A stretch of DNA of 64,000 nucleotides. Source: Escherichia coli. Its GTDB lineage: Bacteria > Pseudomonadota > Gammaproteobacteria > Enterobacterales > Enterobacteriaceae. Below the pieces are notes generated by a model. That model saw only the letters and a program-made list of their open reading frames with translations, had not been told where the DNA came from and made no database searches. Position 1 is the stretch's first letter; every line of letters starts with the position of its first letter. The translations under genes were made by a program, and so were the position numbers. Below, piece by piece: positions 55,454 to 56,068 of the stretch. The DNA lies in assembly GCF_003334385.1 (NCBI RefSeq), contig NZ_QOWN01000011.1; one strand, written 5' to 3'.

Positions 55454-56068
55454 GATTGTCTGCTCCCCTGTCTTGTTATGGGAGCAGTATTCAGGAATAA
55501 AAACATTCATTAAAAGAATTAGTCGTTATCGCACAGATGATTTTATTCTTAGCAAAAAAACGGCTAAGGAAAGATTAAATATGCAATTACTCCGTTCTAA
55601 CAATTGGGAAAATTACTACACTTCATTTTAGTGATGCATAAACAACCACATTACGAGATTTATTACTTCATTATTTCTATCAATATCAATACATATAATA
55701 AAACTATTATATTCGCATTGTATATATCACTGTATCATTCTCAATCACTCGCATATTACATTCACATAATGTATATAAACAATGCTTGTTCACAGAACAT
55801 ATTTTTTAAATGCAATTAATTGACAAACTAAATCACATCTAAATACAATGTATAAAACAAAATAACTATACATACCAAACATACAAACACTTAACATATG
55901 AATTGCATAGAAACATTACCCAGTCGAACCCACGGGTCTGAAAGCCCTTGCTTTTCAGTTATTAGCAACATTTAACATTTATAAATTAACATCTGGCTGC
56001 GCCAGAGATTACGTCTCTGAGTGCATCGTTGTGCTTGTAGTATAATAAATAAAATGGAGTGTCATTAA

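Follow-up and report, generated by a model that had tools for sequence, protein, structure and literature searches.

The tauA–yaiS spacer of Escherichia coli: a probable meeting point of a conserved taurine-operon control region and an AT-rich promoter island occupied by H-NS and RNA polymerase

The window analysed here is a stretch of 64,000 nucleotides of Escherichia coli DNA (contig NZ_QOWN01000011.1) in which tauD, tauC, tauB and tauA are encoded on the minus strand and yaiS, yaiP, yaiX and yaiO on the plus strand, with frmRAB following after yaiO (RefSeq annotation). tauA and yaiS are transcribed on opposite strands, and the divergent arrangement described in the initial annotation of this DNA was thereby confirmed. 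With the tauA ATG at 55453 and the yaiS GTG at 56069 the spacer between both genes has a length of 615 bp and a GC content of 30.4%. The initial annotation had set its left boundary to 55511, which is 57 nt off, as an in-frame ATG at 55510 had been taken as the start codon, extending the tauA reading frame upstream. The features of the region are compiled in Table 1.

Table 1. Features in and around the tauA–yaiS spacer. Positions refer to the 64-kb window; invariant columns give the fraction of invariant alignment columns across four island-bearing alleles.
Feature	Position	Strand	Basis	Properties
tauA	54491..55453	-		amber codon at codon 207 (54833–54835)
Complete divergent spacer	55454..56068	.	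RefSeq starts, composition, 100% identity to MG1655	
tauA leader and predicted promoter/activator region	55454..55591	-		138 bp, 33% GC; conserved in island-bearing alleles
tauA leader			alignment	95% invariant columns
Inverted repeat CTGCTCCC-N12-GGGAGCAG	55461..55488	-		8-bp arms 55488–55481 and 55468–55461; pairs with the tauA Shine-Dalgarno
Predicted tauA core promoter	55486..55514	-		-35-like TTTAAT 55514–55509, 17-nt spacer, -10 AATACT 55491–55486
Alignment segment	55492–55590		alignment	93% invariant columns
LysR-type dyad TTAGC-N9-GCTAA	55549..55567	-		centred ~79 nt upstream of the predicted tauA start
Alignment segment	55591–55700		alignment	61% invariant columns; includes a 9-bp indel
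AT core	55607..55915	.		24.6% GC; corresponds to promoter island '383994_309 yaiS(-)/tauA(+)'
Alignment segment	55701–55905		alignment	86% invariant columns; TTGACA-18-TACAAT block nearly invariant
Promoter-like TTGAGA-16-TACAAT facing tauA	55717..55744	-	consensus scan; same hexamers in PMC3946193 (RpoD SELEX)	
Promoter-like TTGACA-18-TACAAT facing yaiS	55820..55849	+	scan; in PMC3946193	11/12 consensus positions
Alignment segment	55906–56030		alignment	73% invariant columns
yaiS-proximal segment	55916..56030	.		GC-richer, ~39%; poorly conserved, 73% invariant columns
Two short palindromes	55992–56006 and 56003–56019			inside 55916..56030
yaiS-proximal TATAAT, GGAG RBS and GTG start	56041..56071	+	sequence	TATAAT 56041–56046, GGAG 56056–56059, GTG 56069; 97% invariant
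Last 38 nt before yaiS (TATAAT, GGAG, GTG)			alignment	97% invariant columns
yaiS (PIG-L deacetylase), yaiP (GT2 glycosyltransferase), yaiX (LbetaH acyltransferase), yaiO (outer-membrane beta-barrel)	56069..59280	+	RefSeq	

The spacer had been described as far more AT-rich than its surroundings and this is indeed the case: 55511–56068 shows 29.4% GC compared to 51.1% for the whole window, and no more than 0.04% of the 558-nt windows of the 64 kb reach an equal AT-richness. The lowest-GC stretch of this length starts at 55496 and lies with 28.9% GC about 4.6 SD under the mean, and in windows of 200 nt the GC content drops to 24–29% between 55500 and 55999. None of the other annotated spacers between 28100 and 64000 (26 in total with a length of ≥40 bp) is as long as the tauA–yaiS spacer, and only two of them, with lengths of 100–181 bp, have a lower GC content. 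The yaiT–hemB spacer (50435–50957), for which a similar AT-richness had been noted, is the second-deepest GC trough of the window (34.2% GC), and the coding DNA of yaiS–yaiO is only mildly AT-rich with 47.8% GC. The yaiS-proximal segment carries a terminator-like match on the minus strand, and its palindrome at 55992–56006 is disrupted in other haplotypes. In the AT core, the plus strand is also strongly depleted in G, with 22 G and 58 C in the 321 nt between 55600 and 55920 and a GC skew down to -0.54.

Base composition accounts for all of the smaller sequence features that were analysed. In the spacer, -10-like hexamers, TpA steps and A/T runs occur at several times the density of the window and yet are as frequent as in its mononucleotide shuffles (z from -1.4 to +1.4). 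The short A/T runs pointed out initially are therefore numerous, as runs of at least six A or T occur at 37/kb in the spacer compared to 9.6/kb in the window, without being in excess over what the base composition predicts. TATAAT-like hexamers with up to one mismatch reach 39/kb compared to 8.2/kb in the window, which equals the compositional expectation, and a two-hexamer promoter scan of the spacer returned 3 sites with 3.8 expected. The H-NS high-affinity motif TCGATAAATT was found twice when up to two mismatches were allowed, which is chance level (1.9 expected). Curvature, whose calculation had been proposed as a check, showed no excess, with an approximate and only indicative wedge-model mean of 11.4 for the spacer and 12.3 for the window. 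A scan of 54500–57000 against Rfam with a permissive E-value gave no match to a known RNA element, the repeat search of the spacer revealed only short two-copy matches without significant repeats or terminal inverted repeats, and the longest open reading frames in the spacer (71–74 aa) are of low complexity and none of them is credible. Thus, the composition itself is unusual and no further feature is superimposed on it.

Of 5426 complete E. coli genomes, 4300 gave a match when the AT core alone (55600–56068) was used as query. Genomes lacking it, such as JJ1887 (ST131), also lack yaiS–yaiO and have tauA next to frmR, in agreement with the accessory nature that had been assumed for these genes. 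In JJ1887 tauA is located 305 bp from frmR and the spacer in between has 41% GC. Over the 38 nt in front of the tauA ATG the island-bearing and the island-less configuration hardly differ, and the homology to the JJ1887 allele breaks exactly at the 5' edge of the predicted tauA -10. Beyond this break the JJ1887 allele is strongly diverged but collinear, and its TAATTCnTTTA and TTAG…CTAA dyad blocks lie at identical distance from the ATG. The island-bearing genomes separate into two haplotype classes with at least 95% (n=3261) and 80–90% (n=1038) identity and almost no sequences between them. As the 138 bp next to tauA are conserved in the island-bearing alleles and the following 110 bp are less so, the spacer appears to be a composite of the tauA control region and the non-coding 5' part of an optional gene module. 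The comparison of genomes shows the AT core and yaiS-yaiP-yaiX-yaiO to be one optional block. IS1 has been inserted into the spacer at least two times independently, at the tauA start codon (55446-55454) in strain LR-58-1 and at 55669-55677 in strain 164; strain 2018-10-1CC has the junction at 55677 in common with strain 164 and carries a deletion up to 56783 that removes yaiS.

Outside of E. coli, the exact 29-mer of the yaiS-proximal promoter had no match in 100,044 species-representative genomes, and a protein-level scan of the same collection identified only one close relative of YaiS, which is 81% identical and comes from Citrobacter sp. FP75, the next-best match having 48%. Citrobacter sp. 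FP75 carries four ORFs in the same order as yaiS-yaiP-yaiX-yaiO at a different locus, flanked by a di-haem peroxidase/treF region and by fimbrial genes and preceded by a spacer of 412 bp with 35% GC. We also considered that this spacer is homologous to the AT core of E. coli, which was rejected as the alignment is confined to the ~30 nt directly in front of the start codon. The module is thus again preceded by a long and AT-rich region, the sequence of which is not conserved.

On the tauA side, the segment 55454–55591 would be the resident tau control region, in which a weak sigma-70 promoter requires the LysR-type activators Cbl and CysB. Secondary sources describe tauABCD as activated by Cbl and regulated by CysB. 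From the sequence and its conservation we predict the tauA start at ~55479; the literature searched gave no coordinates for a tauA transcription start or footprint. The dyad listed in Table 1 has the T-N11-A pattern of a LysR-type site, lies upstream of the weak -35 and is conserved among the alleles. The block around it, with a consensus of roughly CCnTnGCCGnTTTTTTnCTAAnAA, has kept its position relative to the ATG (-96 to -114) in the otherwise diverged allele of JJ1887. This makes it a candidate recognition site for Cbl/CysB, for which we infer the assignment to Cbl, and both regulators would act here ~80 nt upstream of the tauA start. The Cbl footprint, which we take to extend from -112 to -68, would correspond to 55547–55591, where the conserved block also ends. 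That the interval 55511–56068 must hold the tauA promoter is only true in part: the LysR-type box is located inside, the predicted -35 (55509–55514) straddles the left edge, and the predicted -10 and start fall outside because the tauA start had been misplaced.

The inverted repeat in the tauA leader is predicted to form a hairpin of -16.5 kcal/mol (z = -3.6) in transcripts that started upstream of ~55488, and a transcript from the predicted start at 55479 begins inside the hairpin and is unstructured in the RNA fold. The arms are conserved in all alleles, including one C-to-T change that keeps a G·U pair. One could hypothesize from this model that the hairpin may insulate tauA from read-through, with transcripts leaking from the island being translationally silent.

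For the AT core, published occupancy data can be used. From 55400 to 56760 the sequence equals the reverse complement of MG1655 (NC_000913.3) except for one base inside yaiS and, as the spacer itself is 100% identical, the K-12 data apply directly here. The wider region also matches natural K-12-like strains such as MEI4BO-21, which shows 10 differences in 36 kb. Table 1 of Panyukov & Ozoline 2013 (PMC3661553) includes yaiS(-)/tauA(+) 383994_309 among 78 K-12 promoter islands, regions of ≥300 bp in which potential transcription start points are extremely dense, and marks it with an 'A' for being H-NS-bound in all studies compared (Grainger, Kahramanoglou, Oshima); the position of the AT core given here results from its U00096.2 coordinates, with the yaiS start as reference point. 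In the genomic SELEX of Shimada et al. 2014 (PMC3946193) the yaiS/tauA spacer carries an 'HNS' mark and is a site bound in vitro by the RpoD holoenzyme alone. The RpoS-holoenzyme SELEX peak at 383868 (U00096.2; PMC5493296) converts to ~56041 and thus lies on the conserved TATAAT upstream of yaiS. Promoter islands as a class are reported to be bound by polymerase with formation of open complexes and to give short abortive products and very little full-length RNA.

Of the H-NS-type silencing proposed for the spacer, the occupancy is therefore supported at this locus and the silencing itself is putative, and the comparison with H-NS ChIP profiles suggested for its verification is answered by published occupancy on identical K-12 sequence (PMC3661553, PMC3946193). 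Further traits of such regions are the long AT-rich tract, with 24.6% GC in the core against 51.1% in the window, and the association with accessory genes, the block being absent from 1126 of the 5426 E. coli genomes. Curvature, according to the indicative calculation, and matches to a nucleation motif, both supportive traits, are not elevated in the spacer, which like the only mild AT-richness of the yaiS–yaiO coding DNA speaks against the proposal. The same proposal had been made for the yaiT–hemB spacer, for which we found no H-NS record. An H-NS SELEX mark in PMC3946193 is located between yaiU (the yaiT 3' fragment) and yaiV/iprA, in a spacer (47441-47527) at the other end of yaiT. The literature searched gave no data on yaiS–yaiO expression in hns mutants. 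H-NS binding of the spacer is already documented and the locus is catalogued and ordinary for E. coli.

The two promoter-like sites of our scan at 55820–55849 (+) and 55744–55717 (-) are the same as the two sites named in PMC3946193, where TTGACA-18-TACAAT is assigned to yaiS and TTGAGA-16-TACAAT to tauABCD. Haplotypes with an overall identity of only ~84% hardly differ in the TTGACA-18-TACAAT block. This suggests a promoter that is kept by selection and that would fit poorly to a region that is merely silenced.

Taken together, we consider it very probable that the spacer consists of two control regions with different histories and that its AT core is a promoter island occupied by H-NS and polymerase. 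The part from ~55600 to 56068 would be the 5' end of the optional yaiS-yaiP-yaiX-yaiO module, which is of a surface-polysaccharide type. Purely as a result of its composition the core is packed with -10/-35-like hexamers, and owing to their density RNA polymerase binds it. H-NS coats the same DNA, and with polymerase and H-NS both present little productive transcription of yaiS would result; we infer that it is the H-NS occupancy that keeps yaiS–yaiO quiet.

The silencing could also result mainly from the excess of overlapping promoters, on which polymerase jams or aborts, with H-NS binding being a passive consequence of the AT-richness. For the appY island Bykov et al. 2020 (PMC7054387), from the same laboratory as the earlier promoter-island work, argued for such a silencing by polymerase interference, with H-NS binding unchanged in the activated mutants, and the short abortive oligonucleotides that promoter islands yield would fit as well. 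In the tauA–yaiS spacer the density of -10-like hexamers is ~5 times the window average and RNA polymerase holoenzyme alone is able to bind it in vitro (PMC3946193, PMC5493296). However, the appY result was obtained for one different island with a plasmid reporter, and the H-NS occupancy at yaiS/tauA is reproducible across independent data sets (PMC3661553). As promoter crowding and H-NS silencing are also compatible mechanisms, we regard a predominant role of the former as possible but doubtful.

An ordinary long divergent promoter region, AT-rich like other non-coding E. coli DNA and with yaiS being expressed from its conserved promoters under other conditions, appears unlikely to us, even if every sequence feature follows from composition, the flanks of iraP are equally AT-rich (28.7–30% GC, though short) and the TTGACA-18-TACAAT as well as the proximal TATAAT/RBS blocks are conserved. 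Against it stand the length of 615 bp, which no other spacer examined reaches, the 24.6% GC of the core, the documented H-NS occupancy (PMC3661553) and the little full-length RNA that promoter islands give as a class. The remnant of a decayed gene or mobile element once located between tauA and yaiS, to which the strand asymmetry of 55600–55920 and the repeated insertion of IS1 into the spacer might point, is very unlikely, given that the open reading frames do not exceed 74 aa and are exclusively of low complexity and that neither an Rfam match nor significant repeats or terminal inverted repeats were detected.

Returning to the reading of the spacer as two control regions with an H-NS- and polymerase-occupied core, the filament on the core would end only ~16 bp from the Cbl site and might for this reason spread over the tauA promoter. 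It could then contribute to keeping the taurine operon tightly 'off', with Cbl as counter-silencer and the hairpin adding translational silence for transcripts that leak from the island, an extension that we consider rather improbable. If it were true, E. coli lineages carrying the yaiS island would regulate tau differently from those lacking it, and a similar effect would be expected for ssuEADCB, the second Cbl operon, which likewise faces an H-NS-bound promoter island. The roughly one fifth of E. coli genomes without the island offers a natural experiment on whether silenced neighbour DNA affects a nutrient-starvation promoter. The corrected anatomy, with a conserved tauA control region next to an island-borne AT core, should also be useful in itself.

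The closest comparison is the yaiS/tauA promoter island of K-12 MG1655, which is the same DNA with published coordinates that convert to 55607–55915, and only the flanking genes differ, with a full-length yaiS, uninterrupted yaiX and yaiT and an amber codon in tauA in the strain analysed here. The ssuE/elfA spacer of K-12 resembles the tauA–yaiS spacer in placing a Cbl-dependent sulfonate-sulfur operon divergent from an accessory surface-structure operon, and it is likewise AT-rich and listed as H-NS-bound promoter island (PMC3661553). It differs in its shorter length of 355 bp and in its neighbour, the elf fimbrial operon, and there is no clear sequence similarity between the two spacers except for a loosely similar T-rich dyad region. 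A third island of this list (PMC3661553) adjoins cysB. The position of the ssuE/elfA and cysB islands may be coincidental or may reflect a connection of H-NS to the control of sulfate starvation. The appY island (PMC7054387) shares with the tauA–yaiS spacer the AT-richness, the density of promoter-like sites and the H-NS binding. It is located upstream of a horizontally acquired gene, is poorly transcribed and has been dissected by mutagenesis, a type of study that we did not find for the tauA–yaiS island in the literature. Unlike the appY island, the tauA–yaiS island adjoins a regulated promoter of the housekeeping type.

The coding sequences next to the spacer show some further differences. 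The amber codon in tauA goes back to a SNP at 54834 (T here, C in MEI4BO-21) that changes TGG to TAG, and in this strain the taurine transporter is thus expected to have a truncated substrate-binding protein, with the promoter being intact. Another tauA stop is present at codon 90 in strain 2018-10-1CC. The full-length yaiS encodes 223 aa with CAG at codon 186 (56624-56626), where MG1655 has a TAG leading to a 185-aa product, and yaiX (57924-58505) and yaiT (47528-50434) lack the IS2 and IS3 insertions of K-12. The same yaiS sequence is labelled as a partial pseudogene by PGAP in several genomes.
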